Assembly: GCA_964401055.1 (NCBI GenBank)
Contig: CAYNWW010000002.1
Span: 39,935 to 103,934 of the forward strand
Origin: an uncultured Candidatus Saccharibacteria bacterium
GTDB lineage: Bacteria > Patescibacteriota > JAUYIX01 > CAYNWW01
Length of the DNA: 64,000 bases
Reading direction: 5' to 3'
Part shown: positions 14,907 to 64,000 of the stretch, piece after piece
Numbering within the stretch: the stretch's first letter is position 1
Layout of the letters: the number at the start of each line of letters is the position of its first letter
Program-made: the position numbers and the translations under genes
The notes under the pieces: model-generated
What the model saw: the letters and a program-made list of their open reading frames with translations, nothing else
The model's database searches: none
Told to the model about the DNA's origin: nothing

Positions 14907-15869
14907 TTAAGACTTTTTCTTCACCCGCGAGCGAGCGCGACGACTCACCCCGGCAGCCCCACGTTTTTTTGCAGCGACTGCATGCCGTTTCTTTGCCACA
15001 GCCCGAGCCGCAAACTCTGCAGCGGCCACCTTCGCGGCTCTATTCTTGTGATATGGACGCGGCGCCCCAGAATCAGACTCGGCACTAGCCCCGTCAGCCC
15101 CGCCCACTTTCACCAAAATCGGCCGCAACGCCGAAGGCCGCACATAATTTTGCGCATGTGCCCGCGCCGCAGCGCCTTTGAGTTTTTCCAGCTTATACCC
15201 CACACCATGCTGCGTATGAATGAGCTGATCAGCGCCCGCACACCCCAACGCCTTTCGCAAAAAACGAATATGCACGTCGATCGTATTTGTAAACGGATCC
15301 GTGTTCATGTCCCACACTTGCTCGAGCAGCATTGTGCGCGTCAACACCATCTCGGGATTGCGCAAAAAATATTCGAGCAGCGCAAATTCTTTTTTTCCAA
15401 GGGCCACCTCCCGACCGGCACGTTTCACAATTCGCTTTGGCAAATCCATTTCAATATCCTCATAAGTCAGCACTGAGCCACCCGCCTTCCCCGAAGAAAC
15501 AATCTCTCGCCGACTCAACGCACGAATCCGCGCAAGCAATTCTTCAAAAGAAAATGGCTTTGTTAAATAATCATCAGCACCCGAATCCAGCGCCGCCACT
15601 TTTGTTTGAGTGTCGTCCTTGGCAGTCAACAGCAAAATAGGTTTTGTTTTATTTTTCACTCCGTGCTCACGAAGCTGGCGGGTCAACTCCAGCCCGTCCA
15701 TCACCGGCATACTGATATCAAAAATAAATAAATCATACGGGTTTGTTTTTGCCAAATACAAACCCTCACCCCCGTCGTGCGCCACATCAACCACATGATG
15801 AAACGTGCGCAAGCCCTTACTCACAAAATTACTGATCGCCGGCTCATCCTCAACAAAAAGGATCTTCAT
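14907..15869 (-). CDS. OmpR-family response regulator (REC + winged-helix) with a ~90-aa Lys/Arg/Ala-rich C-terminal tail
   Basis: The N-terminus MKILFVEDEPAISNFVSKGL...DLFIFDISMPVMDGLEL is a receiver domain; a Trans_reg_C segment follows (LTRTMLLEQVWD..GVGYKL); the tail ...AKVAAAEFAARAVAKKRHAVAAKKRGAAGVSRRARSRVKKKS follows that. Confidence 0.85.
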   Translation of the reverse strand: MKILFVEDEPAISNFVSKGLRTFHHVVDVAHDGGEGLYLAKTNPYDLFIFDISMPVMDGLELTRQLREHGVKNKTKPILLLTAKDDTQTKVAALDSGADDYLTKPFSFEELLARIRALSRREIVSSGKAGGSVLTYEDIEMDLPKRIVKRAGREVALGKKEFALLEYFLRNPEMVLTRTMLLEQVWDMNTDPFTNTIDVHIRFLRKALGCAGADQLIHTQHGVGYKLEKLKGAAARAHAQNYVRPSALRPILVKVGGADGASAESDSGAPRPYHKNRAAKVAAAEFAARAVAKKRHAVAAKKRGAAGVSRRARSRVKKKS

Positions 15870-47228: not shown

Positions 47229-50200
47229 ATGGATATGACTCCCGCTGCAACGCCCGCAACCCCGCCCGACCCAACGAAAAAAAATTTCGTGCATTTGCAT
47301 ACGCACAGTCACTATTCCCTGCTCGATGGATTGGGAAAAATTGACGACCTCGTCAATCGCGCCAAAGAACTCGGCATGACCGCACTCGCGCTCACCGATC
47401 ACGGCGTGATGTATGGCGCGGTCGAATTTTACCAAAAATGCACCAAGGCCGGCATCAAGCCAATCATCGGCATGGAAGGCTACATCGCACAAGGCAGCAT
47501 GACCCAAAAGCGCGCCAACATTGACGACAAGCCCTATCACGTCACGTTTCTGTCGTACAACGAAGAGGGCTACAAAAATCTGATCAAAATCACGTCGGCC
47601 GGACATTTGGAAGGATTTTACTACCGGCCGCGCGTGGATTATGACTTTTTGCGCGCGCACTCGCGCGGATTGATCGTACTTTCAGGCTGCGTCAACAGTC
47701 ATATTTCGCGCGAAATTATTTCCGGCAACATGGACAAAGCGCGCGAGATCGCTCTCATGTACCAAGAGATTTTTGGCAAAGAAAATTATTATTTTGAAAT
47801 CCAAGACAACCCCAAACTCGACAAGCAGATTATCAGCAATAAAGCGCTCCTTGAGCTCTCAAAAGAACTTGGCGTGCCGGTAGTTGCGACCAACGACATT
47901 CACTATGTACGTAAAGAAGATGCTCAAGCGCAAGATTTGCTTCTGTGCATCCAAACCAACCGCACCGTCCAAGAAACCAACCGCATGAATTTGCTCGACT
48001 GTGACTTGTCGATGCGATCGCGCGAAGAGATGGAAGAATCGTTTCGCGACATGCCGGAAGTGCTCGACAATACGGTCAAAATCGCCGAGCGCGTGGATTT
48101 TAAAATGAAACTGGGCGAAATCCAACTGCCGAAATACGAACTGCCCGAAGGCGAAACCAACGAAAGTTATTTGGAAAAATTGTGCCTGGTCGGCATGAAG
48201 CGTGCGTATGGCGTCGATGTGGCCGACTTGACCGAAGCCACGGTGGCGGGACTTTCGCCGCGCGATCGCGGCTATGTAGATCGATTGATTTACGAATTGG
48301 GCGTGATCAAAAAAACCGGATTCTCGAGCTATTTCCTCATCGTGCAAGACTTCGTGAACTATGCCAAAGGCGCGGGAATTTTCGTGGGCCCCGGCCGCGG
48401 TTCGGCTGCGGGAAGCTTGGTGTCATACGTACTCAACATCACAAGCGTAGATCCGATCGAGTATGGGTTGCTGTTTGAACGATTCCTCAACCCGGAACGT
48501 ATCAGCATGCCTGATATCGACCTCGACTTTGCCGACGACCGCCGCGCCGAAGTGATCGCATATGTGGAAAAGAAATACGGAAAAGATCACGTGGCACAGA
48601 TCGCCACGTTTGGAACCATGGCCGCACGCGCGGCCGTGCGGGACGCCGGCCGCGCACTCGCGCTCCCCTACGCCTATTGCGACCAAGTTGCCAAGCTCAT
48701 TCCTCCGATGAAATCCAATCTCACCAAAGCGCTCGCCAACGTGCCGGAATTCAAAGAATTGTACGAAAAAGATCCGCAAGCAAAACTCCTCATCGACATG
48801 GCGAAAAAACTCGAAGGTGTGGCGCGCCATGCATCCGTGCATGCCTGCGGCATCCTAGTCACCCGCGAAGAGCTCAACGCCTACGCGCCCGTCCTCGCCA
48901 TGGAAAACAAAAACGCGCCAAAAGACGCACCGACCAGCGCCATCGTGTCTCAGTATTCGCTCCACCCAGTCGAAGATCTCGGCTTGCTCAAGATCGACTT
49001 TTTGGGCTTGAAAAACCTGACGATCATGCAAAACGCGCTCAAGCTTTTGAAAGAAGGCAAAAACATCGACATCGACCTCAACAAGCTTGATTATAAAGAC
49101 GCAAAAACCTATGAACTGTTCCAACGCGGCGAAACCGTAGGCGTGTTCCAGTTTGAATCTTCCGGCATGCGCCGCTACCTCAAGCAGCTCCGCCCCACCG
49201 AATTGCGCGACATCATCGCCATGGTGGCGCTCTATCGCCCGGGCCCGATGGATCTGATCCCGGATTACATTGGCGGCAAACACGGCACCAAGCAGATCAC
49301 CTATCTCCATCCCAAGCTCGAGCCCATTCTCAAGCCGACCTATGGCGTCGCGGTGTATCAGGAACAATTGATGCAGCTCGCCCAAGCGCTCGCCGGCTGG
49401 ACGCTCGGTCAGGCCGACTTGCTGCGTAAAGCAATCGGTAAAAAAATCGAAGCGCTGTTGAAAGAGCAAAAAGAAAAATTCACCCGCGACTGCGTGGCCA
49501 ACGGCATCGAACTCGAAACCGCCCAACAAGTGTTTGCGTTCATCGAACCATTTGCCGGCTACGGCTTCAACTTGTCGCACGCCACCTGCTACGCCGTGCT
49601 CGGATTTATGACCGCCTACCTCAAGGCACACCACCCGGCCGAATTCATGGCCGCGCTCATGACCTCGGACGAAGGCGACACTGACCGGCTCGCCATCGAA
49701 AGTGCCGAATGTAAAGCTATGGGCATCCCCGTGCTCTCCCCCGATGTCAACGAAAGCGGCGCCAGCTTCAGCGTCGTCCGCCACCCGGAAGATCCGACGC
49801 GCGATGCCATTCGCTTTGGCTTGGGCGCAGTGAAAAATGTGGGCGCCAACATCGTAGCCGTCATCGTGGCCGAGCGCCGCGCCAATGGACCATTTGCCTC
49901 GCTGGATGATTTTGTCACACGCGTACAATCCCGCGACCTCAACAAAAAATCACTGGAAAGCCTGGCGAAATGCGGTGCGCTCGATCGATTTGCCGAACGC
50001 GCATCCGTGATCGCCAACATGGACGACATCTTACGTCACGCCAAAGAAATTCAAAAAGCGCGCGCGTTTGGTCAAGAGTCGCTCTTCGCTTCCATCGCGC
50101 GCACCACGCCCGCCTTTCAAGCCCCCGCGCTCCAACTCAAGCCGGTGACTCCCGCCATTCGCGAAGAAAAATTGTCGTGGGAAAAAGAATTACTCGGTCT

Positions 50201-50996
50201 CTACGTGTCCGAACATCCGGTACATGCGTTCATGGACGTGCTCGGCAAAGTCTGCACGCCCAACAACAAACTCGCTCCGCTTGCCGAGCAAACCAACGTG
50301 CGCATCGGCGGCGTGATCACTAAAACGCAAAAGATTCTCACCAAGAAAAATCAAAACATGATGTTTGTGACCATCGAAGACGTCTCGACGTCGGTGGAAA
50401 TTTTAGTATTTTCAAAAACGCTGGAAAAATATGCAGCCATGCTTGAAGTCGGCAAAGTCGTGATTGCCGAAGGAAAAGTAAGTCACAAAGGCGAAGTACC
50501 GAAATTATTGTCCGATGTGTTTCATCTCTTGACCGACGCCACGCGCGAGGCAATGAGCACGCTCAAGCCGGTCGAACAACGCGCCGGCCGCGGGCGATTT
50601 GGCGGTGGTGCTAGTGGCGGCAACGGCGGATTTAACCGCGCGCCAGCCTGGACCCAACAGCAAGGAGCATCGTTTCGACCTTCATATCCGCAGACCCCAA
50701 CTCCAGCTCCGGCCTCGACGCCGGCCGCGATTCCGTCGCCCACAGCCTCAGGCGCCAAACTCCTCGCAGTAGACAAAGCGCAAAATGCCATCACCATCAC
50801 TCTCCCCGCGACCTACAAACCCGCCGACTTTGAATTGCTTAAAAAAATCCTCTCGAGCACGCCAGGATCGGTCAAGGTCAACCTCCAGCTCGCATCTCCT
50901 CAAGGTGGAGTTAAAAAAATCGAGACTTCTTTTGCCATCCAAGGCACCACCGAAGTATTTCAACAACTCAAAACACATTTCACGCCGTATTTATAA
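47229..50996 (+). CDS. dnaE: DNA polymerase III alpha subunit with a ~200-aa C-terminal extension
   Basis: It has a PHP domain at the N-terminus (HLHTHSHYSLLDG), a pol beta-like core, an OB fold, and then a Gly/Pro/Ala-rich linker followed by an extra globular segment. Confidence 0.95.
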   Translation: MDMTPAATPATPPDPTKKNFVHLHTHSHYSLLDGLGKIDDLVNRAKELGMTALALTDHGVMYGAVEFYQKCTKAGIKPIIGMEGYIAQGSMTQKRANIDDKPYHVTFLSYNEEGYKNLIKITSAGHLEGFYYRPRVDYDFLRAHSRGLIVLSGCVNSHISREIISGNMDKAREIALMYQEIFGKENYYFEIQDNPKLDKQIISNKALLELSKELGVPVVATNDIHYVRKEDAQAQDLLLCIQTNRTVQETNRMNLLDCDLSMRSREEMEESFRDMPEVLDNTVKIAERVDFKMKLGEIQLPKYELPEGETNESYLEKLCLVGMKRAYGVDVADLTEATVAGLSPRDRGYVDRLIYELGVIKKTGFSSYFLIVQDFVNYAKGAGIFVGPGRGSAAGSLVSYVLNITSVDPIEYGLLFERFLNPERISMPDIDLDFADDRRAEVIAYVEKKYGKDHVAQIATFGTMAARAAVRDAGRALALPYAYCDQVAKLIPPMKSNLTKALANVPEFKELYEKDPQAKLLIDMAKKLEGVARHASVHACGILVTREELNAYAPVLAMENKNAPKDAPTSAIVSQYSLHPVEDLGLLKIDFLGLKNLTIMQNALKLLKEGKNIDIDLNKLDYKDAKTYELFQRGETVGVFQFESSGMRRYLKQLRPTELRDIIAMVALYRPGPMDLIPDYIGGKHGTKQITYLHPKLEPILKPTYGVAVYQEQLMQLAQALAGWTLGQADLLRKAIGKKIEALLKEQKEKFTRDCVANGIELETAQQVFAFIEPFAGYGFNLSHATCYAVLGFMTAYLKAHHPAEFMAALMTSDEGDTDRLAIESAECKAMGIPVLSPDVNESGASFSVVRHPEDPTRDAIRFGLGAVKNVGANIVAVIVAERRANGPFASLDDFVTRVQSRDLNKKSLESLAKCGALDRFAERASVIANMDDILRHAKEIQKARAFGQESLFASIARTTPAFQAPALQLKPVTPAIREEKLSWEKELLGLYVSEHPVHAFMDVLGKVCTPNNKLAPLAEQTNVRIGGVITKTQKILTKKNQNMMFVTIEDVSTSVEILVFSKTLEKYAAMLEVGKVVIAEGKVSHKGEVPKLLSDVFHLLTDATREAMSTLKPVEQRAGRGRFGGGASGGNGGFNRAPAWTQQQGASFRPSYPQTPTPAPASTPAAIPSPTASGAKLLAVDKAQNAITITLPATYKPADFELLKKILSSTPGSVKVNLQLASPQGGVKKIETSFAIQGTTEVFQQLKTHFTPYL

Positions 50997-51143
50997 AAAA
51001 CCGTTCAGTATCAACACGATACAGAACGGCTAACCTTTTTATACGCTGCTAATTTTGCGTTCACTTCACGCCGAAGCGCCTCGCGATCCTTGCTCATCCG
51101 CACAACGCTTTTGCGCAGAACTTCTACCGCCAGGAAATATTCA

Positions 51144-51935
51144 TTACTCTGCCGATCGTACTCCATGCTCTTTTCCTCCCAACATAAACTCTGCACACCA
51201 CTCCTGCATCACCGGCGTCCAAAGCTGGTCAAATCCCGGAATCACCACAATCCAGGGCGCCAACCGCGGAAGCTGACGACCGAGCACATCACGCAAAATC
51301 CGCTTATTGCCAAAAATTGCATGTTGTTCGAGCGCGTACAGGATATAATCCAACGTCTCAAGAGCCGTGAACACGCGCGCCTCCCACAAACTCACCTCGC
51401 GAAGCGCACGAATAGTTATCATCGCCACTTCAGGAAAATATTCAGAAAGCTCCGCAAGTCGCCGCTCATCACACTCCTCATCTCCGGAGCATGGCACGTG
51501 CTGAAGTAAATAGGCACTTCGCGCCAATTCCCAAGCATGGCCTGAACGAAGTGCAAAAAAATCTTCATACGCGTCAAATTCTTCGCGATCATGCGCGACG
51601 CCTTTCCTCGCAAATTGCACATCGCGTCCACAGAGCCACTCGCCATGATCATGCTCGAGTGCAGCCGTGCGCAATGCCTCAATATCCAAGCGAATTCCGC
51701 GCTCAAAGCATGGGCCGAAAAAAATCTCGCACGCCACGCGCACCAATCGCTCCAGGGACAGCTTGTGCTCGGCTAAATTTTGCGGTCGTATGCGCTCTTC
51801 CGACGGCGTCTCAACGCCCGGCTGGGGTCCATATGCACTCCAGCGCACAATCGACGACGGCCCCACTTGCACCGCTCGCCAGCCTTCAATCAATCGCGAC
51901 AAAACCGGACATGGCAACTCAATGCTCGCTTTCAT
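51144..51935 (-). CDS. Hypothetical protein, possibly an HD-domain phosphohydrolase-like protein; GC-rich
   Basis: The sequence AALEHDHGEW resembles an HD motif; the assignment is weak. Confidence 0.25.
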   Translation of the reverse strand: MKASIELPCPVLSRLIEGWRAVQVGPSSIVRWSAYGPQPGVETPSEERIRPQNLAEHKLSLERLVRVACEIFFGPCFERGIRLDIEALRTAALEHDHGEWLCGRDVQFARKGVAHDREEFDAYEDFFALRSGHAWELARSAYLLQHVPCSGDEECDERRLAELSEYFPEVAMITIRALREVSLWEARVFTALETLDYILYALEQHAIFGNKRILRDVLGRQLPRLAPWIVVIPGFDQLWTPVMQEWCAEFMLGGKEHGVRSAE

Positions 51936-52016
51936 GACACACCTCCTGCGCCCATACTGAAGATAACTGCCTCAATTGTCAACAAACACACGCCGAAATA
52001 ATGCTATAATTCCCTT

Positions 52017-52507: not shown

Positions 52508-53653
52508 ATGCAGACCACACCTAGTAATCGTCTTTCACCCACATGGCGCGTAATAAGCATTGTTGCCATCACTCTCATATGCAACCTGTTACTTTTTTTC
52601 CTTATGCCTGGCGATACAATTGGCGCGCGGATAAACAGAGCTATGGCTGAACGTCTTTCCAACGCGCTGTTTGTCGAAACACTTGAACTCGGATTTGTTT
52701 CAGCATTTCTAGTCTTCCGCGCAGTCGGTTTTCGAGGTTCTTTTTGGAGCGCGTGGAGATATATTGCGTCCGGCATCTTTTTCGTTTCGGTCGCCGATGT
52801 TGCGCTATTGATTGCGTGGTTTCTATTCCCAACATTCAACGGAGGACTCATTTCGGCTGCCTTCAGCGTTATTTTTATGCCGCTCTTTATTATGTCCGGG
52901 CACAAACTTCTTCTCATGGCAGGAAAAAAGAATGGACTTCTTACGTTCGGTATTTACGCTGGATGTGTTGTAGCTAGCGTGCTTTCTGTCTACGGCATCG
53001 CGGTTGCCTATCCTCCAGCAGAAGGACTGCAATCAGTTATACCACAAACCGCATCAATCGGGCTTGTTATTGGCAGCGTCGTGCAACTATTTAGAGCCCG
53101 AAATGTTTTTACCGGAAGGATGCGACGCGTTCATATCCAGAGCGCTACCGCGTTCGCGCTTATAGTGCCTGGCTTGATGCAAGAAGTACTGCTTTCTTTC
53201 GTAGGACACGCAAGCGAATTTGCATACAACTGGAATATTCGCTGGCAGATTAGCCAACCAATTTGGCTATTGGCATATGTTTTTCTCGTGTATTCATCCG
53301 CGCGCATTCGCTTTGACTTTGCGGAAATTTACAAGCTCTCTCTTGCACCCAGCTCATACACAAATCCGTACGCACAGATTATTGACTTAACTGTCCGAAA
53401 GTTTGAACAGCTTATTGGAAAAGAAATTTCCATGCAGCGTCTTACGCATATCAGTGCTTTGCAAATCACTGATGCGGGCGGGATTCGCATTCCAAGTGAA
53501 GTTGAAGATTCGATTCTGATTGAAGCGTATCAAGAAACGATGAATATTTACCGCGATTTACTTGGTGACGTCGCTGACGATTTTGCAGCCGATGCGACGC
53601 GTTCGGTGCGAGCACAACATCCAGAGATCGCGTTTCAGAAAATTAACAATTAA
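52508..53653 (+). CDS. Paralog A of an uncharacterised multi-TM membrane protein family with a conserved C-terminal cytoplasmic domain
   Basis: Motifs shared with 53664..54686, 56583..57552 and 62311..63456 are [FL][KR]G[KS][FL]W..WR near TM2, MAGK[KR]N mid-protein, NPYAQ.I...V.KF..LIG.EI and Y.DLLGD.A.DFA.D.T.....HP at the C-terminus. Confidence 0.6.
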   Translation: MQTTPSNRLSPTWRVISIVAITLICNLLLFFLMPGDTIGARINRAMAERLSNALFVETLELGFVSAFLVFRAVGFRGSFWSAWRYIASGIFFVSVADVALLIAWFLFPTFNGGLISAAFSVIFMPLFIMSGHKLLLMAGKKNGLLTFGIYAGCVVASVLSVYGIAVAYPPAEGLQSVIPQTASIGLVIGSVVQLFRARNVFTGRMRRVHIQSATAFALIVPGLMQEVLLSFVGHASEFAYNWNIRWQISQPIWLLAYVFLVYSSARIRFDFAEIYKLSLAPSSYTNPYAQIIDLTVRKFEQLIGKEISMQRLTHISALQITDAGGIRIPSEVEDSILIEAYQETMNIYRDLLGDVADDFAADATRSVRAQHPEIAFQKINN

Positions 53654-53663
53654 ATGATTTCAT

Positions 53664-54686
53664 ATGTCTCTCACAACACCTGAAAAAATTGAATTCGTCG
53701 TCATGTTTCTCATGCCGATTGCCGGCTTGGTACTCGCGTTCATTCTTCTTGGAACACTCGGATTCAAAGGAAAACTATGGGCGCCTTGGCGATATCTTTC
53801 GTATTCATTGATCGCCGCCGGAATAGGCAGCATTGGCAATCCGCTTTTTCTTTTTGTTACCAGCAAAACCGCCATTGCAGTATTTGGAATTGCCGGCTCT
53901 TTCTTTCTGCTTACTCCTATTTTTATCATTCTGAGCGCACGCAAATTTGGCAAGCTCTTTCATATCAAGCTTTTTTTCACTTCATTCCTTGGTCTCTCCC
54001 TAATTGCGTGCGGACTATTTGTCGCAGAATTTCTTATTTCATTTGTTTACAAGCCCGTGGGATCCCTCCCGTATATTGTTATATCTACAATGGTCGCCGC
54101 CTGCGAAATTGCATCGGCACTCTCGCTCAACAAACTCGCTCCACATGTTCAAGGCGCAGTTGCCAAGCCGATCCGAACTTTTTCGCACGTGATGATCTTG
54201 ATTGCACTTTCATCTATTCAGGAACCAATTAGTGCCTATGTTGGCTGGTCCGAAAAAATAACACCGATCAACCCTCTCGCGACCTCCGTTTTGGTTGGAT
54301 GCTACCTCATTGGCTTCCTTGCACTTCTTCGCCCCGTTCTTCAACTTCGCTCTGCGTTGCGCACTTCTTATCAAACATACGAAGTCGAACTCTCGCAGCA
54401 ACCCTTTTTCCAAATGATCCAGCTCCTCATCCAAAAATATAGCGCCCTTATCGGACCCAGCCTTGTTGTAACCGCGGCACGCAAAATTCAAGGTCTTAAT
54501 GTAAATGAAGATGGTTCTTTGGTCCGAATCGAAGAAAGCGACGGACGCCTTGCACTCATTTCTCTTATAAGCTCACATCGCGAACTGCTTGGCGATGTGG
54601 CATATGACTTTGCACAAGATGCAACACGAGGAGTCCTTGCTCAACATAAAGATATTCAATTCCCAACACGTGAAGAAATTGCTTGA
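53664..54686 (+). CDS. Paralog B of the same membrane protein family (tandem to A)
   Basis: It shares the motifs FKGKLWAPWRYLS and ...HRELLGDVAYDFAQDATRGVLAQH. Confidence 0.6.
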   Translation: MSLTTPEKIEFVVMFLMPIAGLVLAFILLGTLGFKGKLWAPWRYLSYSLIAAGIGSIGNPLFLFVTSKTAIAVFGIAGSFFLLTPIFIILSARKFGKLFHIKLFFTSFLGLSLIACGLFVAEFLISFVYKPVGSLPYIVISTMVAACEIASALSLNKLAPHVQGAVAKPIRTFSHVMILIALSSIQEPISAYVGWSEKITPINPLATSVLVGCYLIGFLALLRPVLQLRSALRTSYQTYEVELSQQPFFQMIQLLIQKYSALIGPSLVVTAARKIQGLNVNEDGSLVRIEESDGRLALISLISSHRELLGDVAYDFAQDATRGVLAQHKDIQFPTREEIA

Positions 54687-54827
54687 TTCATCACGAGCTT
54701 ATTAACGAAGTCATTTATGTTTTGCAGAAAACGCAAGAAATAGGACAAGAAAATAGTAACATATTTTCTTGTCAACCACGGGCTAAAATGATACATTTAT
54801 CGTGTCACCTATTTTTAATGGTATTTT

Positions 54828-56588
54828 ATGCTCGAACCAAAAAAAGAGCTTACTTCACTTGAAAAAATGCGCCATTCGACTGCGCATACGCTGGCCATGG
54901 CTGTTTTGGAAATTTTCCCTGCTGCGAAATTGGGTATTGGCCCGGTTATTGAGGATGGATTTTATTATGACTTTGAGCTGCCGCGCGCGCTGACCGACAA
55001 AGAGCTGGTAGATATTGAAAAGCGCATGAAAAAAATTATTAAGCTTGGTCTGCCATTCGAACAAGTGTTTTTGTCACAGGATGAGGCGCGCGCGCAGTTG
55101 GCGGCGCAGCCCTACAAACTTGAGCTGCTTGCCGAAATTCTGGATGAGCGTGTGTCATTTTTCAAAAACGCAGACAAGTTTATGGATTTGTGCCGTGGGC
55201 CGCATGCGGCGTCGACCGGCGCGATCGGCGCATTCAAGATTTTGCATACGGCCGGCGCGTATTGGCGAGGTGATGAAAAAAATAAGATGCTGACACGCAT
55301 TTACGGCACCGCGTGGGAAACACAAGAAGAGCTCGACGCATACCTTGCGCGCGTGGAAGACGCCAAGCGCCGCGATCACAAAAAACTCGGCAAAGATTTG
55401 GATTTATTTTTCTTTGATGCGGAAGTTGGCAAGGGTTTGCCGATGTGGACACCCAAAGGCACGGCGATCAAATTTGAGTTGGAGAAATTTACGCGCGAGC
55501 TCGAGCGCCACTATGGCTACGAGCACGTCGAGACGCCGTATTTGGCGCAAGAGACGCTCTACAAAACCAGCGGCCATCTCGCCCACTATCGCGCAAACAT
55601 GTACAAGCCGATCGACATGGATGGCGACGAATTTTATTTGCGACCGATGGCATGTCCGCACCACATCAAAATGTTTATGCGCAAGCCGGTGAGCTACAAG
55701 CAGATGCCGGTGCGGTTTGCCGAGATTGCGGATTACAATCGGTTTGAAAAATCCGGCGAACTCATGGGCATGATTCGCGTGCGCAAATTTACGTTGACGG
55801 ACGGTCATTTGTTTGTGACTCCCGATGGGCTCAAAGACGAATTCAAGCGCGTCTGTCAAATGATTCAGGAAGGAATTCGCGGCCTGGGAATTGAAGAGAA
55901 AGTCTCCTATCGATTTTCCAAACACGACCCGGCGGATCAGGAAAAATATTATCCGGATGCGGAATTGTGGCGCAAATCAGAGACGACGATGAAAGAGGCG
56001 CTTGATGAATTGGGGTTAAAATATGTCGAGGCTACGGGTGAGGCTGCGTTTTACGGGCCGAAACTCGACGTCCAGTTTCGCAACGTGAATGGCAAAGAAG
56101 ATACCGCATTTACCGCGCAGATGGACTTTTTGCTGCCAGAAAAATTTGATATTTCCTACATTGGCGCGGATGGTTCGAAGATGCGGCCGGTAATGATTCA
56201 TCGCTCGACGATCGGCGCGCTGGAGCGCACGTTTGCGTTCTTAATTGAGCACTATGCCGGCGCGTTTCCATTGTGGATGTCGCCGTTTCATGTTGCGGTG
56301 CTGCCTGTGTCAGATGCATTCACGCCATTTGCCCGCGAATTTGCGGCCGAGATGGATGCCCTTGGTATTCGCGCGCAAGTCGCGGACGAAACCGAGAGCG
56401 TGGGCAAAAAAATCCGCGCTGCTGAAATGGAAAAGTTCCCCTACATCATCGTCGTGGGTGAAAAAGAAGTCGCGGGTGGCGATTTGATGGTGCGCGTGCG
56501 CGGTCAAAAAGATCAGCGCAGCATGACACGCGCGGCATTTTTGGAGATGGTTGTGGAACGACTCAAGGTGCGAGGGCTGGAACTATAG
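54828..56588 (+). CDS. thrS: Threonyl-tRNA synthetase, short form lacking the N-terminal TGS domain
   Basis: It has the editing-domain HSTAHTLAMAV, class II motifs (RDHKKLGKDLDLFFF; FRVRKFTLTDGHLF; ...GPKLDVQF) and a C-terminal anticodon-binding domain. Confidence 0.9.
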   Translation: MLEPKKELTSLEKMRHSTAHTLAMAVLEIFPAAKLGIGPVIEDGFYYDFELPRALTDKELVDIEKRMKKIIKLGLPFEQVFLSQDEARAQLAAQPYKLELLAEILDERVSFFKNADKFMDLCRGPHAASTGAIGAFKILHTAGAYWRGDEKNKMLTRIYGTAWETQEELDAYLARVEDAKRRDHKKLGKDLDLFFFDAEVGKGLPMWTPKGTAIKFELEKFTRELERHYGYEHVETPYLAQETLYKTSGHLAHYRANMYKPIDMDGDEFYLRPMACPHHIKMFMRKPVSYKQMPVRFAEIADYNRFEKSGELMGMIRVRKFTLTDGHLFVTPDGLKDEFKRVCQMIQEGIRGLGIEEKVSYRFSKHDPADQEKYYPDAELWRKSETTMKEALDELGLKYVEATGEAAFYGPKLDVQFRNVNGKEDTAFTAQMDFLLPEKFDISYIGADGSKMRPVMIHRSTIGALERTFAFLIEHYAGAFPLWMSPFHVAVLPVSDAFTPFAREFAAEMDALGIRAQVADETESVGKKIRAAEMEKFPYIIVVGEKEVAGGDLMVRVRGQKDQRSMTRAAFLEMVVERLKVRGLEL

Positions 56589-57552
56589 CTTTGTTTGCGG
56601 CAGCACCAGATCAGGATATTTCGTCTTGTACTGCTTTGACACATCTAGGATAAAATCTTGAGCGGAATCGCCCAACAAATCCGTGTATGCTGCTCCGATT
56701 TGTTCGATTGCGTGCACGCCAACCTCGGTACTTACCCCCTCTGCGATGACAAATTCACCGCCTTGTCGGGGCTCAACAATAGCAACTTCACTCAAACGCG
56801 CGAGCGCAATTTCTGCACCAATCAGACTGGAGAATTTTTTCACAATTGCCTCAATAAGCTGCGCATATGGATTTTCGTAAGATGAATAATGCTCAAGTGT
56901 TTCTGCGTAAGCGTCGGCAAGATCCTTGCGTAATTTGCCGGCCGTATAAACAATGAAGGATGAAACGACCAAATATGCAATTGCTCCAATATGATATTTT
57001 ATAATGATTTGAGCCACTACGCTGTCTAGGCTAAAAAACACTCCTCCAAATTCTTGAAGTGAGGCAATCGCAGTAAATAAAGTCACGAGGAACAGTCTAT
57101 GTTGCGACTTCTTGAGAGACCCAGTAATAAAGCTCTCACTTCGATACATCTCCTGGCCAAGAAAGCACGAATGAACGGCGACCAGCCATCTTAAAAAATC
57201 GCTTCACACCAAGAAACCCAAGAAAAGAAGATAAAACATAGAAAAGCGGGAAAAGCCCGGCGATTGGGCTTGACTGATATTCATAGCCAACAATAAAAAA
57301 CAGCGTGTAGCCGAGCACATTTGCGACGCCATACATCGTGAGCCCAGCGGCAAGCAATCGCCAAGCGACCCAAAACTTGCCTCTCAGTTTCTCAGCAGTC
57401 AACATGCGGAGACCGGCGTAAAATGCCAGCGAAGCAGTGAGGACGTAAAATAAGTTTTCAATTTTGCTTGTCGCGGTTACATTAGGTATTTTCCCAACCG
57501 TCTCTCCTGCAAAAAATAGTATCCACAGTAACAAAAAAGTAGTAACAGTCAA
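56583..57552 (-). pseudogene. Paralog C of the membrane protein family, split into two overlapping ORFs (57136..57552 and 56583..57149): either a frameshifted pseudogene or a naturally split gene.
   Basis: The N-terminal ORF carries LRGKFWVAWR and FKMAGRRSFVLSWPG; the C-terminal ORF carries NPYAQLIEAIVKKFSSLIGAEIA and YTDLLGDSAQDF. Paralogs A, B and D encode these regions as one polypeptide. The two ORFs overlap by 14 nt in different frames. Confidence 0.5.
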
Positions 57553-57614
57553 AATATTACCGTAAGCAGGAATGATGGTTTACCCCATACTTTTACATTA
57601 GGCATGTTGCTGTA

Positions 57615-59399
57615 TTAGTTTTGATCAAGCGGAATAAAACAATAAAAAGTACTCCCTAGTCCCTCTTCAGAGCTCACCCCAACAATCCCTCGATGCGCTT
57701 CAACAATTCCTTTCGCAATAGCAAGACCGAGACCCGTTCCCTTTTTTTCACTTTTTACCCTTCCGTTCACCTGCTTAAACTTGCTAAAAAGACTAGGTAT
57801 ATCACTTGGAGCAATGCCAACCCCACTATCCGTGACGGCAACAAATATACCGGGCGGCAATTTCTTGAGTCTTTCCTCGGAGTCCTTAATAAACCATTCA
57901 ATAGAGGCAGCTCCAGCCTCAGCTGCAATATCACCCGCATTTGCATGCATCAAGACGCTAATGGTGACTCGGCCGCCTTTTCCGGTAAATTTAAGCGAAT
58001 TAGATATAAAATTGTTCAAAACTTGACCGATTTTATTTGCGTCAAACAAAATCATCTCCGGTACGTGCTCGTCAATCACTGCATGTAGCTTGATTCCAGA
58101 ATCTTTTGCCAAGGGGCCAAATGCATGAACTTTCGCCTTAACCACATCTCGAATATTTGATGGTTCCACAAAAATTTGAAATTTTCCTGCTTCTATTTTT
58201 GCTTGATCAAGAAGATCATTTACTAGTTCAATCATGCTCTCCACATTACTACCCATGAGCGAAATCATTTCCTTATACTCTTTTTTTCCTGGCTTGAGAA
58301 TTCCCTCTTTAAGAAGCTGAATAGTTGAAGAAGTTCCCACAAGCGGCGTTCGCAGCTCATGCACCATCATAGATGTAAAATCTTCACGCAATCGCTCAAC
58401 TTCTTTTTCGTGAGTGATATCATGAAAAATTACTACACCGCCAAGTATTTCTTCTCCCGAAACTCCAGTTTTATTCTCGACAGGAGATACAAAAATTTGA
58501 TAAAACCTATCATGAACAAGAACATCATCTAGCGTGATTATCTTTTTCAATTTTACGCTTTCCTCAAGACGGCCTCTGATATCAAATGCACCGCCCAAGC
58601 CGTCTATAAGATCAAAAATTAAAACTTCAATTTTCTCTTCAATGCCGACGATTTTTTTTGCAGCGGGATTTATTGCCAAAATCCGATACTCCTTGTCAGT
58701 CATAACAATCCCCTCAACCATACTCTCTATCATAGAGTTGAGCTTCCGTTGTTCGTTTTCGACAACATCCTGAAGTCTACTTACGGCCTGTGATGCCTGC
58801 TTTGTAATTTTATACAAAATACTTGTTTCACTTTCGTTGTACTGACCTTCTTTTGTGTCAGCAACAGTCAATACACCAACTACCTTATTGCCAATCACCA
58901 GCGGTATATTGAAAAATGACCGAACAGGATCTTGAATTTCATCAACAGTAATTGCGCCAGAAATTACCGGTTCAACCTGACTTTTACTCAAATCTTTATC
59001 CAATAAAGCGGAGAGCGACTTAAGCATACGCCCTTTTATATCTTCGATAAACAGAGGCGAAACCGATCTCTCAAGATTTGCTTTAAAAATTATTTTCTCG
59101 GGCCCCAAAAGCATATAAGATACAACGCTATAATCCATAAAGGAGCGCAGTGATCCCGTAATCATGTCAGCAACATTCTGGACGTTGAGCGAATACCCAA
59201 CTCGCTCACCCAAATCCTTCAAAATCGCCAATTCATACAGACGATGACTAATTTCCTTTTCTTTCTTTTCGTTCTCTGTTTTGATTTTTTTCTCGAGCTC
59301 CTTTAGTCTGACGTCAACCCTCCTCCCTCTCAAAAATACAAACACAGTTGCACCAATAGACAGCACTAAAGCGGAAAAAAGTATGACGAGATCAGACAT
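57615..59399 (-). CDS. Membrane-anchored sensor histidine kinase (TM - GAF - PAS-like - HisKA - HATPase_c)
   Basis: It has an N-terminal TM (LVILFSALVLSIGATVFVFL), an H-box MVHELRTPLVGTSSTIQLL, and ATPase boxes (DSGVGIAPSD..GTGLGLAIAKG). Confidence 0.85.
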   Translation of the reverse strand: MSDLVILFSALVLSIGATVFVFLRGRRVDVRLKELEKKIKTENEKKEKEISHRLYELAILKDLGERVGYSLNVQNVADMITGSLRSFMDYSVVSYMLLGPEKIIFKANLERSVSPLFIEDIKGRMLKSLSALLDKDLSKSQVEPVISGAITVDEIQDPVRSFFNIPLVIGNKVVGVLTVADTKEGQYNESETSILYKITKQASQAVSRLQDVVENEQRKLNSMIESMVEGIVMTDKEYRILAINPAAKKIVGIEEKIEVLIFDLIDGLGGAFDIRGRLEESVKLKKIITLDDVLVHDRFYQIFVSPVENKTGVSGEEILGGVVIFHDITHEKEVERLREDFTSMMVHELRTPLVGTSSTIQLLKEGILKPGKKEYKEMISLMGSNVESMIELVNDLLDQAKIEAGKFQIFVEPSNIRDVVKAKVHAFGPLAKDSGIKLHAVIDEHVPEMILFDANKIGQVLNNFISNSLKFTGKGGRVTISVLMHANAGDIAAEAGAASIEWFIKDSEERLKKLPPGIFVAVTDSGVGIAPSDIPSLFSKFKQVNGRVKSEKKGTGLGLAIAKGIVEAHRGIVGVSSEEGLGSTFYCFIPLDQN

Positions 59400-59406
59400 G
59401 TCGTAT

Positions 59407-60129
59407 CTATTGAATAACTTTTTTAATCAAGCCGACCGACTTATAGAATCCGTAAGCAACAAAGAAATACGCCGGAAAAGTTATTAGTTGCTCAACCTTC
59501 TCAATAAAACTGGCGTCAAACATCAAAACCTTCCAGCTCTCCGTCAATAGCTCCCAGAAATGGGATATGCCGTAAAGCCCGAGAGCCACAACAAGCGGAG
59601 AAACAATAACGCGTATTGCAGGCAACAATCTTTCCTTTGCCATAAGCAGATAAAGTGCGGCACCGGTTCCGAGAACAAATGAGATAAAATGGACAAGTCC
59701 GGCTCGATCAATCAATCCCCCCTCAAAAGCTTGCAAAGAACCATCCAATGAAGGAAGTGCGATAATCCAGAGCATAGCAAAAACCAACGATCCAACGGCC
59801 GACATCTTTGCGACAAACCACGAAGGCTCCTTTTTCTTTTCAGCTTCGAATCCAAGAAGCATTTTGCCGGCTACGAGGTATGCGATAGTTGACAACCAAT
59901 GAAGCGCGTGCCAACCGAGTTGCATTGTGAACTCACCAACGCTGATAATTTCAGATTCATTCAGAAACAAAAAAATGCGAACTGTTCCAAGAAAAAATGT
60001 TCCAATCAAAAAGTAGACCACCGAAGTCCCAATCACAGACTTTCTATACAAATGCGTTAGCTGAAAAGCAAGAAAAAGCGACCACAAAACCAACAAAAAG
60101 CTGACAAAATCCATCATGATAAATCCCAT
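59407..60129 (-). CDS. Hypothetical polytopic membrane protein (240 aa, ~7 TM) between two histidine-kinase genes
   Basis: The hydrophobicity pattern shows about seven TM segments; I recognise no motif. Confidence 0.4.
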   Translation of the reverse strand: MGFIMMDFVSFLLVLWSLFLAFQLTHLYRKSVIGTSVVYFLIGTFFLGTVRIFLFLNESEIISVGEFTMQLGWHALHWLSTIAYLVAGKMLLGFEAEKKKEPSWFVAKMSAVGSLVFAMLWIIALPSLDGSLQAFEGGLIDRAGLVHFISFVLGTGAALYLLMAKERLLPAIRVIVSPLVVALGLYGISHFWELLTESWKVLMFDASFIEKVEQLITFPAYFFVAYGFYKSVGLIKKVIQ

Positions 60130-60156
60130 ATTATTTTGTAATTTTTTTTATTTACC

Positions 60157-60426
60157 CTAATCAATCTTTTTTACCGAAGGATACTTAACAAATACCGAGC
60201 TCAATGCGTTTTTCACGATCAGGCCAGAAAGCTCAACATATTGATCAATAAGCTTCTGCACAACCACTTGCGGATCACCGGTAATTTCCAAAACAACGCC
60301 TTTATCTGATATCACAAGCTCTTGTACTCGCTTGGCTCGCGCAATAGCCATCTGTGGACCAAGTATAATTGCCTGCTTTTGAATAACCTCTCCGATTAAC
60401 GACTTGTATTGTTCTTTTTCGTCCAT
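60157..60426 (-). CDS. Hypothetical small protein (89 aa)
   Basis: An ORF with a coding-like composition between the HK genes; no recognisable motif. Confidence 0.3.
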   Translation of the reverse strand: MDEKEQYKSLIGEVIQKQAIILGPQMAIARAKRVQELVISDKGVVLEITGDPQVVVQKLIDQYVELSGLIVKNALSSVFVKYPSVKKID

Positions 60427-60465
60427 AGAGTTTTAATAATTTTTCTAAATATTATTTTAATTATA

Positions 60466-62231
60466 TCACACAGGAAACTTAAACCAGAATGTACTTCCTC
60501 GCCCTTCCTCAGAAGTAAACCCGATAGACCCGCCTTGCTGCTCAATAAAATACCGCGCAACGGAAAGGCTTAAACCAGGAGCATCGGGAACGGCTAGTAT
60601 TGCGTTTTGAGAGCGAAAAAATCTTGAAAAGATCTTTTGCTTATCTACTTCTGGTATGCCAATTCCGGTATCCTTTACCTCAAAACGAACATATTTTTTT
60701 CCATTCGGATCGAAACGGTTACTGTGCCGCCAGAGCCGGTATACACAAATGAATTCCTCAGCAACTCAGCTATGATAAATCTGAGCTTTCTCGTATCAGC
60801 CAAAACCGTTACGGGCTTTTCTTTATTCGCTAAAAGCCGACAATCTATTCCTTTTGCATCATATTTTTTCTTCCAAAAAATAAGCTCAGACTTCACAAGA
60901 TCATTCAGCAAAAAACTTTCTTTGGTGAATTGAACGCGACCCTCTTCAATATCAATCGCAGTCAGAAGATCGTCTAGGCGGTTAATTATTTCGCCATCAG
61001 CGTTATATACAATTTGCAAAAAGTCTTTTTGATTTTTTTTCATCGCACCAAGCTCGCCGGCAAGCATCACTTCAAGGTTCCATCGTATTGATGTAAGCGG
61101 AGTTCTGAGCTGATGAGACATAACTCGAATAAATGCACTTTTCATCTGATCAAGCTTACTGACTTTTTCAAAGCTTTCCTCGATACTTTCGGCCATAGAA
61201 TTAATTCCGCGGCCTACTTCTGCGACCTCATCGCTTTGGTTGCTAGGAACATTTACGCGAGCTTTAAAGTTTCCGCGCTTTATTTGATCCAAAACAGTTT
61301 GCTTTTCCTTAATGCGCGAAGTAAACCTTTTGCCAAAAATAAATGCGATCATCAACACAAGTACATCTATGCCAAGCATCAATGCTCCCAACTCGATGGC
61401 ATGTTTACGCGCATCTTTATCAAGAATACCCTTATCGATTTCTACTACCGTAATCCAAGGGGTATTTTTCGAACAAAACACGGCGCCAAAAACTCGTTTC
61501 CCTTCGTAATTCAAATGCTCATCGATGATTTTTTTATCAGCATCAATACACTCGCCAATTTCTTTTGTTTCAGCCTTGTAAACAAGCGACTTATCAGGAT
61601 TGTCAAAAAATGATGCGCCGATAATAAGCTTATTCTGATCTACAAGATACGAAGCATATTCATCCCGAGGCGCGCTCGCAAGAATCTTGTTTAACTCCCG
61701 AATATCCACATGATTTATTATGACCCCAATCGTTTTTCCAGTACTCAAATCCACAATCGGCGCTGCCGCATGAAAAAATGGTATATCATGGTGGCCCGGT
61801 TCAATCTCAAGTAAAAAACCACCTGCGACGGGCTTGCCAAAATCACTTTCCAATCCTTTTAGGAACCCATATTCTCGGTCCAGATCTTCAAGGTCCTGCG
61901 TGTCATTGTAGTCAAGCCGGTCCAGTTCAGTTGAAACCATTATTCTACCCGAAACATCGCGAATATCGGTGAGTACGACATCGTCATCAAGAGACACATT
62001 CTTTGCCTTTATATAAGCTGACAATTCTTCAGCTTTTAATCGATCACGGGTCTTTAAAAGCGAGGCAAACTCTTTTCGTATATGCCCATCCAGCGACCAA
62101 TCAGCAACTCTTGCTTTGTTTATTTCAAAAAATTGAGGAATTTGATTTTCTATAATCTTTGCAGTTGCCTCAATACGAGCTTTGCGGTCTTCAAAGCTGG
62201 ACTTCATATCTTTTTGATACATATAATACAA
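60466..62231 (-). pseudogene. Sensor histidine kinase (periplasmic Cache-like sensor - TM - HAMP - HisKA - HATPase_c) with an apparent frameshift in a homopolymeric A7 tract (plus-strand T7 at 60694-60700) that truncates the ATPase domain. The track ORF 60675..62231 ends prematurely after the N-box.
   Basis: The track protein ends ...ELLRNSFVYTGSGGTVTVSIRMEKNMFVLR*. My translation of the adjacent frame continues ...YVRFEVKDTGIGIPEVDKQKIFSRFFRSQNAILAVPDAPGLSLSVARYFIEQQGGSIGFTSEEGRGSTFWFKFPV* (G1/G2 boxes), and one extra A would fuse the two frames. The annotated start is TTG, and an in-frame upstream segment encodes a TM1-like KLAIIFVFVSILPING with no ATG. Confidence 0.6.
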
Positions 62232-62310
62232 GCCGCCATTAATCGGGAGGATTGAAACAAAAACAAATATGATCGCGAGTTTTTGTTTTAAGTTTAGGCG
62301 TGGGATGTAT

Positions 62311-63456
62311 TTATTTAGAGTGTCGCGCGGTTGGCAATATCACTTCCGGATTTCTTGCGCGAATGCCGGCAGTCACATCAGCCGCAAATTCTAGCGCAGA
62401 ATCACCAAGCAAATCATGATATACATTCAGTACCTTTTCCATATTATACTGTCCCGATTCTTTTGATATGTTTTCAACAACACGAAAACCCAATTCATCT
62501 TTCGTCAATTCAACCACATCTATATTCGTAACTCTGGCAAGTGCAATTTCTTTTCCTACAAGATCGCAAATCTTGCGAATAATGGCCTCAAGCGCAGCCG
62601 AATGCGGATTCTTTAACGCAGAGACATGCTCGACTTGATTGGGAGATTGATAAATTGCCTTAATACTGCTCCACGCCCCCCGGTGAACAACATACCAAAA
62701 CACCCACAAAAACGCCCACAGGAATGGGGCCACAAAAGAACTGACTTCGGATGCTCCTTCCTTAAAAAGTGCCGCCAGTAACGGGAGGGCCAATGCGGCG
62801 CAAATGAAAACTCCCCGCGATAGACTCTTTTGCACCTTGTTCAATGAGCCCGTAACATATATCGAACTCCCCCGGAATCCAAAAGCAGCGCTTACTATAA
62901 GTGCAGCATTAAACCCAATAACTACCGAAAGCACTCCAACAAACGAATTAATCGGTTCAAAATTGGCATTTAATAAAAACACAAGCACCACAAACAAGGA
63001 AGGAATAATTAAGACACCAGGAAAACTGAGAAAAAAGTTTCTTTTGCCGGCCATTTTGTAAAATTTAAATGGGGCAATAAAAAGAAAGACGGCGCAAATT
63101 GTTTTTAGAAGAGTTGAGGCTAGAAAAGCGGTTCCCGTATTAAACAACGAATACACGCCACCCCATATGACCAACTCGCCCAAAATATAGAGAATGACTC
63201 CGCGGGCATACGATCGCCAGCCTGACCAAAATTTCCCTTTCAGCTGCGTAAATTTCCAAACTATTGGAAGTGTTGCGGCGCCTACGGTAACATTGAGGGT
63301 GTGAAATAGTGCATATAACCGCCTACCAAGTAGAGACTCCTGAGCAACGTGTTCAAAGTCCCTCGAAAAAACCCAAAAGAATTCCAACAAAAATACGATA
63401 ATCGCACAAACAATATATATCAGAATCTTCACTCTACCTGATTGTTGTTTTGTCAT
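62311..63456 (-). CDS. Paralog D of the membrane protein family, immediately upstream of the Cache/HAMP histidine kinase
   Basis: It shares the motifs LKGKFWSGWRSY, YKMAGKRNFFLSFPG, NPHSAALEAIIRKICDLVGKEIA and YHDLLGDSALEFAADVTAGIRARNPEV. Confidence 0.6.
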   Translation of the reverse strand: MTKQQSGRVKILIYIVCAIIVFLLEFFWVFSRDFEHVAQESLLGRRLYALFHTLNVTVGAATLPIVWKFTQLKGKFWSGWRSYARGVILYILGELVIWGGVYSLFNTGTAFLASTLLKTICAVFLFIAPFKFYKMAGKRNFFLSFPGVLIIPSLFVVLVFLLNANFEPINSFVGVLSVVIGFNAALIVSAAFGFRGSSIYVTGSLNKVQKSLSRGVFICAALALPLLAALFKEGASEVSSFVAPFLWAFLWVFWYVVHRGAWSSIKAIYQSPNQVEHVSALKNPHSAALEAIIRKICDLVGKEIALARVTNIDVVELTKDELGFRVVENISKESGQYNMEKVLNVYHDLLGDSALEFAADVTAGIRARNPEVILPTARHSK

Positions 63457-63506
63457 ATATAATTTTACTTTTGCGTTTATTATACAGCATTGCTATGATG
63501 TTAGCC

Positions 63507-64000
63507 ATGAATACGACCCACCAGAACGCTAAAACTTACCATATTTTGACCTATGGCTGCCAGATGAACGAGGCTGATTCCGAGCGGATCGCCGGCGTTT
63601 TTGAGTCGGTCGGAATGCGACGGGCGGCGCGTGAGCGTGACGCGGATTATATTGTCGTAAATACGTGCTCCGTGCGGCAAAAAGCCGAGGATCGCGTGTA
63701 TGGGAAAATGCTTGTGTATGAGGATATTAAGCGCGAGCGGCCGTCGACCAAGATTATTGTGACCGGCTGTATGATTGGGAAGGTGTCGCGGAATTATAAA
63801 AAAGACAACGCGGCTGCGATTTTGAAACGCTTGAAGCACAATTTGCCGATCGTGGATTATTTCATGGACATCAGCAATTTGGATCTGTTTCGCGAGCAGC
63901 TGCAACACGACAATGTGTCGGAAGAATTGCTCATGCAGTTGCGCAGCGAGACCAATTATCTCGAAGTGCAGCCTGTCTATGACAAGCGTTATAAGGCATA
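63507..64000 (+). CDS. Radical-SAM methylthiotransferase (MiaB/RimO family), 5' portion, truncated by the window end (an alternative in-frame start is at 63495).
   Basis: My translation reads MNTTHQNAKTYHILTYGCQMNEADSERIAGVFESVGMRRA...DYIVVNTCSVRQKAEDRVYG...IIVTGCM, which matches the MTTase N-terminal domain with its conserved Cys triad. It is not in the ORF track because no stop falls in the window. Confidence 0.7.
   Translation, partial: MNTTHQNAKTYHILTYGCQMNEADSERIAGVFESVGMRRAARERDADYIVVNTCSVRQKAEDRVYGKMLVYEDIKRERPSTKIIVTGCMIGKVSRNYKKDNAAAILKRLKHNLPIVDYFMDISNLDLFREQLQHDNVSEELLMQLRSETNYLEVQPVYDKRYKA

Follow-up and report, generated by a model that had tools for sequence, protein, structure and literature searches.

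What do four related polytopic membrane proteins that belong to no assigned family do beside the sensor histidine kinases of a Candidatus Saccharibacteria genome? The question is raised by a stretch of 64,000 nucleotides (contig CAYNWW010000002.1, positions 39,935 to 103,934; hereafter the window), in which an earlier note made from the sequence alone had described four paralogous transmembrane (TM) proteins with a conserved cytoplasmic C-terminus and had suggested that they act with the neighbouring kinases. We found that the C-terminal ~90 residues of these proteins constitute an undescribed and probably non-enzymatic domain family, predicted to be cytoplasmic and here called X. The same domain occurs as a free-standing protein of 89 residues, X89, which heads an operon of X, a membrane protein and a kinase.

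A domain shared by four paralogs and an 89-residue protein

The list of open reading frames (ORFs) confirmed the four paralogs at the positions previously given. A (52508..53653, plus strand, 381 residues) consists of an 8-TM domain and an X domain at about 53354-53650, and is in tandem with B (53664..54686, plus strand, 340 residues), which has a shorter N-terminus and its X domain at about 54390-54683. D (62311..63456, minus strand, 381 residues) has eight TM helices in the structure model and an X domain at about 62314-62604. Paralog C is split on the minus strand into Cn (57136..57552, 138 residues), which comprises TM1-4 and ends right after a KMAGRR motif, and Cc (56583..57149, 188 residues), which has two TM helices and an X domain at about 56586-56882. 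Pairwise BLASTP, with E-values at a nominal database size of 1e6, connected all long pairs at E 1e-12 to 1e-22 (A-D 3e-21; A-B 1e-17; B-D 1e-12; A-Cc 1e-22; Cc-D 4e-20) and linked Cn to D (1e-6) and A (5e-7). The mutual identity of A, B and D is 22-25%. Most of the motifs regarded as common to the family indeed occur in every copy, namely [FL][KR]G[KS][FL]W..WR and, in all four C-termini, NPY..I...[VI].K...L[IV]G and Y.[DE]LLGD.A.[DE]F; the exception is K[MF]AG[KR][KR], which A, Cn and D have and B lacks.

The split copy differs from the others by more than a simple frameshift, as it lacks ~50 residues equivalent to TM5-6 of D. The two frames share 14 nt (ATG...TGA, 57136-57149), the start of Cc preceding the stop of Cn. 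Since this arrangement is typical of translational coupling, C may be made as two polypeptides, a 4-TM unit and a unit of two TM helices plus X, and is not necessarily a dead gene.

The AlphaFold2 model of D (predicted local distance difference test, pLDDT, 85.4; predicted template modelling score, pTM, 0.83) consists of eight long helices followed by an alpha-alpha-beta-beta-alpha-alpha domain. Its charges obey the positive-inside rule (lysine plus arginine counts of 3, 3, 4, 4 and 3 inside versus 1, 0, 0 and 1 outside), which places both termini in the cytoplasm. The outer loops are short and the conserved basic motifs all lie on the cytoplasmic face, as do most of the best-conserved positions (G74, F76, W77, W80, R81, K131, F132 and G203). 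One Y-x-P motif is located in an outer loop. The paralogs remained as unassigned as they had been, with no match in Pfam, NCBIfam, PADLOC or the PDB sequences; at E<=1, Pfam returned nothing for A, B, Cn and D and, for Cc, only chance-level hits to DUF2274 (E 0.11) and a holin model (E 0.18).

When all 841 six-frame ORFs of the window were searched with the family profile, only the pieces of A-D and one further ORF were recovered, the 89-residue X89 (60157..60426, minus strand; E 1.8e-4), the next match having an E-value of 1.4. A profile of the X89 subfamily aligned with the fused C-termini over 84 columns (hhalign 97.8%, E 1.1e-12), and the AlphaFold2 model of X89 (pLDDT 90.5) folds as alpha-alpha-beta-hairpin-alpha-alpha, in the same order of elements as the C-terminus of D. 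This common order and the hhalign score show X89 and the paralog C-termini to be homologous. The earlier note had listed the 89-residue ORF and overlooked that it is the domain that ends the paralogs.

The consensus of X reads PY..I..AII.K....LG..IA...A..V.GL.....G.V......LE.L...Y..LLG..A..F...A..PI....P.L.LP. The X89 subfamily is tightly conserved (mean column identity 68%), and the fused X domains are far more divergent (22-40% identity). Across the superfamily only G23 and G68, each following a long helix, are invariant or nearly so. X is acidic, with a median isoelectric point of 5.4 for X89 and values of 4.6-5.6 for the four window copies. Two known domain types were considered and rejected. 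An HPt phosphotransfer domain, a four-helix bundle with a phospho-accepting His, does not fit, as the superfamily has no conserved His or Asp. H-NOX (Pfam HNOB) spans ~185 residues with a heme pocket, a proximal His and a Y-x-S-x-R motif; the 89 residues of X match only part of 183-189-residue chains, and the comparison gave no Pfam match at E<=1, no PDB sequence match and fold scores below significance.

The operon of free X in Patescibacteria

Free X is widespread in Patescibacteria. A search with the domain alone returned 168 proteins, nearly all of 88-95 residues, and those named in their sources are hypothetical proteins of Yonathbacteria, Magasanikbacteria, Minisyncoccota or the 'Patescibacteria group', which places the window itself in a Patescibacteria genome. 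The neighbourhood of free X was surveyed with our own profiles in 68 species-representative Patescibacteria genomes, which yielded 67 informative loci. At every one of these 67 loci, an orthologous kinase of ~585 residues with the architecture TM-GAF(-PAS)-HisKA-HATPase_c lies downstream of X on the same strand. The association with kinases is thus conserved outside the window for the free form of the domain. A stand-alone receiver directly follows the kinase at 56 of 62 loci and is found just upstream of X instead at three loci; four of the 62 resemble the window in having no adjacent receiver. These receivers have no output domain. Several X89 loci encode two of them (e.g. L017, L044, L053 and L067).

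A membrane protein is inserted between X and the kinase at 44 loci. It belongs to type T7 (240 residues, 7 TM helices) in 21 cases, to type T3 (~110 residues, 3 TM helices) in 16, and is another small TM protein in the remaining seven. At 23 loci X abuts the kinase (gap <=60 nt), and most of these encode a protein of a further type, T4 (125-195 residues, 3-4 TM helices), immediately upstream of X. The operon order is also found in five further contexts from metagenomes and metagenome-assembled genomes. In total, a membrane partner adjoins X at no fewer than about 60 of the 68 X89 loci. These partners are often tandemly duplicated, as exemplified by two T3 genes of 44% identity in L010 (6282-6951). 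At L057 (6275-7171) the best T7-like ORF (299 residues) is on the strand opposite to X and the kinase, which could be due to faulty ORF calling or to a local inversion.

No other gene of the operon is as conserved as X: its mean pairwise identity is 62%, whereas that of the kinase is 52% and that of the receiver 42%; at T7-type loci alone the values are 81% for X, 65% for the kinase and 51% for T7. The invariant synteny and this degree of conservation support the view that X89 obligately accompanies one particular kinase.

The order in the window is that of the T7-type loci: X89 is followed after 27 nt by T7 (59407..60129, minus strand, 240 residues, 7 TM helices) and after a further 7 nt by the TM-GAF-PAS-HisKA-HATPase_c kinase HK1 (57615..59399, minus strand), an ortholog (46-56% identity) of the kinases following X in other Patescibacteria. 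That this trio is a widely conserved operon had escaped the earlier note. The T7 of the window matches that of locus L001 with an E-value of 6e-22. Neither X89 nor T7 gave a hit in the PDB sequence search, Pfam, NCBIfam or PADLOC, and Pfam at E<=1 had none for T3 and T4 either. We considered whether T7 is a heliorhodopsin and rejected this assignment: no rhodopsin or heliorhodopsin Pfam model matched T7 or the paralogs A-D, the conserved Lys of T7 lies outside the seventh TM helix, and no lysine is conserved in the last TM helices.

X89, T7 and HK1 are part of one minus-strand cluster that runs from 63456 to 56583 in the order D, HK2, X89, T7, HK1, Cn, Cc with gaps of 7-79 nt. As already described, C follows the TM-GAF-PAS kinase HK1 (62 nt) and D precedes a Cache/HAMP kinase (79 nt), HK2 (60466..62231, minus strand; dCache-HAMP-HisKA-HATPase_c), a kinase different from that of the X89 operon. 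A frameshift in HK2 had gone unnoticed. Its ORF stops at 60675 within HATPase_c, the rest of the domain being intact in another frame down to 60466; the frame changes at an A7 homopolymer (60694..60700, minus strand), where A8 would restore a kinase of ~588 residues. This one-base shift may have arisen in the assembly, or it may be a recent, possibly slippage-prone, inactivation.

The kinases had been called orphans, and there is indeed no response regulator at 52-64 kb; the label holds only locally, as orthologous operons normally carry a stand-alone receiver at the position occupied here by C. The sole response regulator of the window is of the OmpR type (14907-15869, minus strand). This protein of 320 residues (Response_reg plus Trans_reg_C) has a C-terminal extension of ~90 residues without assignment.

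Fused relatives and a possible origin of the eight-helix form

Very few proteins have the fused form of 8 TM helices and X. An exhaustive HMMER search with the family profile in 1.84 billion representative proteins gave 41 matches, mostly of ~90-130 residues and covering the C-terminal domain alone, and only about ten of the proteins searched have the fused architecture. Besides the proteins of the window, full-length relatives are P0005, P0007, P0008, P0009 and P0013; P0035 comprises the membrane part only, and P0010 consists of one TM helix and the X domain. For each of P0005, P0009 and P0010 the longest contig is an NCBI contig of 58,408 bp, so that the three are probably encoded on one contig, which would make it a second genome with several paralogs. 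None of the relatives found outside the window had a Pfam match. The choice of method mattered, as word-indexed homolog searches (with D or the full-length alignment) returned almost nothing, and only the exhaustive HMMER search and the search with a domain-only alignment succeeded. Metagenome scans with the alignment A7 and with P0007 revealed no relatives. Origin in a defence system or a phage was rejected, since nine proteins of the region had no PADLOC match and no relative was found on viral contigs.

The contexts of two of the more distant X proteins extend the link to two-component signalling beyond the X89 subfamily. P0013 (fused, L001) lies in the order HAMP protein, PAS kinase, P0013, T7 homolog, PAS kinase and four stand-alone receivers, and the free 95-residue P0012 in the order HAMP-PAS kinase, 262-residue protein, X and receiver; both are thus in operons with other kinase types. 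The four receiver genes near P0013 are in tandem at 12125-13733 of L001, after the second kinase. The free protein P0014 follows, at 4-nt spacing, two paralogous 5-TM proteins of 216 and 219 residues (L081, 5687-6996).

How the eight-helix form arose is suggested by T4. Profile comparison with hhalign aligned T4 with the N-terminal half of the 8-TM domain (E 5.5e-4, 117 columns) and with its C-terminal half (E 2.9e-4, 118 columns), and the two halves with each other (E 6e-4, 36 columns). All T4 alignments were collinear, and controls with T3 or T7 against the two halves gave E-values of 0.04-0.4. Moreover, Cn corresponds to exactly one 4-TM unit, and the operon order of T4 followed by X equals the domain order in the fused proteins. 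These comparisons suggest that the 8-TM domain is a tandem duplication of a 4-TM, T4-like unit that was fused to X, a history that fits the T4-then-X order of the abutting operons. A single motif uniting all membrane partners was also considered; it holds weakly, for T4 only, since the fused TM domain versus T7 or T3, and T7 versus T3, gave E-values of 0.06-0.2, and T4 versus T7 gave 0.008.

The proposed adaptor role and its alternatives

We propose, with confidence that is about evenly balanced, that X is an adaptor in the cytoplasm, linking polytopic membrane proteins to a membrane-anchored histidine kinase, and that the four paralogs are fused versions of this pair. X is fused with a membrane protein in A, B, C, D, P0005, P0007, P0008, P0009 and P0013 and adjoins one at most X89 loci as well as in L081; fusion and adjacency together argue for X as a partner of polytopic membrane proteins, with which it would be in contact. 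By the same reasoning, the invariant adjacency of X89 and its kinase suggests that X touches and regulates the kinase. In most Patescibacteria, a small multi-TM protein, X, the TM-GAF-PAS kinase and a stand-alone receiver would work together as products of separate operon genes, X coupling membrane-embedded inputs to a kinase that a single helix anchors in the membrane and that lacks an external sensor domain. In the lineage of the window, the 4-TM partner would have been duplicated in tandem and fused to X to give A, B, C and D, with the standard split module X89, T7 and HK1 kept beside the fused copies. The paralogs might then act on HK1 and HK2 either as alternative inputs from the membrane or as modulators, contacting the kinases through their cytoplasmic-face motifs and X domains, and A and B would act on the same kinases from a distance.

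Several observations weigh against this adaptor role. A and B adjoin no kinase, being ~3 kb away from the nearest one and on the opposite strand, between a SprT-like ORF and thrS. P0009 is encoded between SPFH-like and endonuclease III-like genes (identified by eye only), and no two-component genes were found within 5-7 kb of P0014. The earlier view that each copy is tied to a signalling gene is therefore not tenable. The X89 subfamily always has a kinase as neighbour, and about half of the other contexts include one; since there is none beside A, B, P0009 and P0014, the universal companion of X is a membrane protein, fused or adjacent, and not a kinase. Furthermore, no polar residue is conserved across the X superfamily, so that the sequence by itself points to no mechanism. 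The homology between T4 and the fused TM domain is weak (hhalign probability 20-40%), both proposed contacts of X are deduced from synteny and fusion, and the cluster of the window shows possible signs of decay. The suggestion that the paralogs act with histidine kinases draws partial support from the synteny of free X outside the window and from P0013 and P0012.

The same observations lend substance to a competing explanation, which we regard as possible although doubtful: the fused paralogs may be independent of kinases and X a general cytoplasmic domain for regulation or oligomerisation of small polytopic membrane proteins (for instance a channel, a scaffold or a membrane homeostasis factor), only X89 having been recruited to a kinase operon. 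A membrane partner is present in every context examined, four of the proteins have no kinase beside them, and the fused X domains have diverged much further than X89. On the other hand, D and C directly flank kinases, and P0013 and P0012 are in operons with kinases of other types, so that the link to two-component systems is seen again outside the X89 subfamily. For A and B, a membrane function that involves no kinase is just as conceivable.

A role of the 8-TM proteins as transporters or permeases, with the C-terminal domain as a regulatory part, is unlikely. Many transporters share their architecture, which is polytopic and may include a 4+4 internal repeat; however, neither a curated profile nor a transporter fold matched them, and nothing points to transport, which leaves the transport accessory role raised in the earlier note without a basis.

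Decay of the cluster, with the paralogs as non-functional remnants of duplication, appears more unlikely still. C is split and has lost two helices, HK2 is frameshifted and the usual receiver is absent. However, A, B and D are intact ORFs of 340-381 residues that keep the family motifs (in B all but K[MF]AG[KR][KR]) at 22-25% identity, implying long purifying selection; moreover, the shift in HK2 amounts to one base of an A7 homopolymer and might stem from misassembly, and an adjacent receiver is also absent from 4 of 62 other genomes. Finally, two helix-Gly-helix motifs that loosely recall helix-hairpin-helix (HhH) domains, and operon receivers that are devoid of output domains, might suggest X as a small DNA-binding output domain and the fused proteins as membrane-tethered transcription regulators supplying the missing output, but we reject this highly improbable reading because X is acidic, and HhH proteins were not among the significant fold matches.

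The adaptor role has parallels in known systems. LiaF-LiaS, BceAB-BceS and YycHI-WalK are intramembrane-sensing kinases with accessory membrane proteins. As proposed here, their kinases have no extracytoplasmic sensor domain and depend on membrane proteins encoded separately in the operon; unlike here, there is no extra soluble adaptor with interchangeable membrane partners and single-domain receivers, and the sequences are unrelated. 7TMR-DISM, 5TMR-LYT, MASE and MHYT are likewise multi-TM bundles with short loops that serve as signal input, but they are fused straight to kinase or GGDEF outputs and are covered by Pfam models, whereas the partner in our case is X and no model matches. The pairing of X with a kinase is also near to that of a sensor protein with its kinase in H-NOX/HnoK-type systems. 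The nearest published analogy is the genomic linkage of heliorhodopsins to histidine kinases in monoderms including Patescibacteria (PMC8612252), in which the X adaptor has no counterpart.

More tentatively, X might be a dedicated transducer that plugs interchangeable receptors with 3, 4 or 7 TM helices, or with 8 in a G-protein-coupled-receptor-like form, into one of the few histidine kinases that these reduced genomes have kept. Such a modular receptor-adaptor-kinase design is undescribed for two-component systems, and the four receptor-adaptor fusions would have multiplied its inputs in the lineage of the window.

The surroundings of the cluster show further features. A and B do follow the gene described as SprT-like, the identity of which is weak (Pfam E 0.006, below the curated cut-off). 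Divergent from this gene, an ORF of 263 residues (51144-51935, minus strand) has no Pfam, NCBIfam or PADLOC match. Further upstream, a DnaE-like ORF (47229-50996, plus strand, 1255 residues) contains a low-complexity segment rich in Pro, Ala and Gly, and at its C-terminus it extends past the usual polymerase core. The G+C content is ~40% at 58001-62000 (X89 to HK2) versus 53-56% at 48001-52000 (dnaE region), a marked heterogeneity within one contig. A perfect palindrome with a 12-bp stem at 54744-54773, between B and thrS, is a possible bidirectional terminator or operator; promoter and terminator scans gave nothing above chance. At the end of the window, a gene start (~63497-64000, plus strand) with the N-terminus …TYHILTYGCQMNEADSERIA… resembles, by eye only, a MiaB/RimO-type methylthiotransferase; this gene and D diverge from a shared upstream region of only ~40 nt.

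Our searches of the literature found no description of the X family or of its operon. What is new is the domain family X together with a further form of two-component signalling with accessory proteins, the mechanism being a proposal. At least four families now annotated as 'hypothetical' (X, T3, T4 and T7) receive names and profiles, and the adaptor idea provides a concrete hypothesis that is open to in vitro kinase assays even though the organisms are mostly uncultured. Among all bacteria, Patescibacteria of the Candidate Phyla Radiation (CPR) encode the fewest histidine kinases relative to gene number, about 0.29 per 100 genes (PMC10805038). With so few kinases per genome, the operon is likely to be important. 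Kept across many Patescibacteria classes, and with a protein of 89 residues and no family assignment encoded by its most conserved gene, it is probably one of their main sensory pathways.

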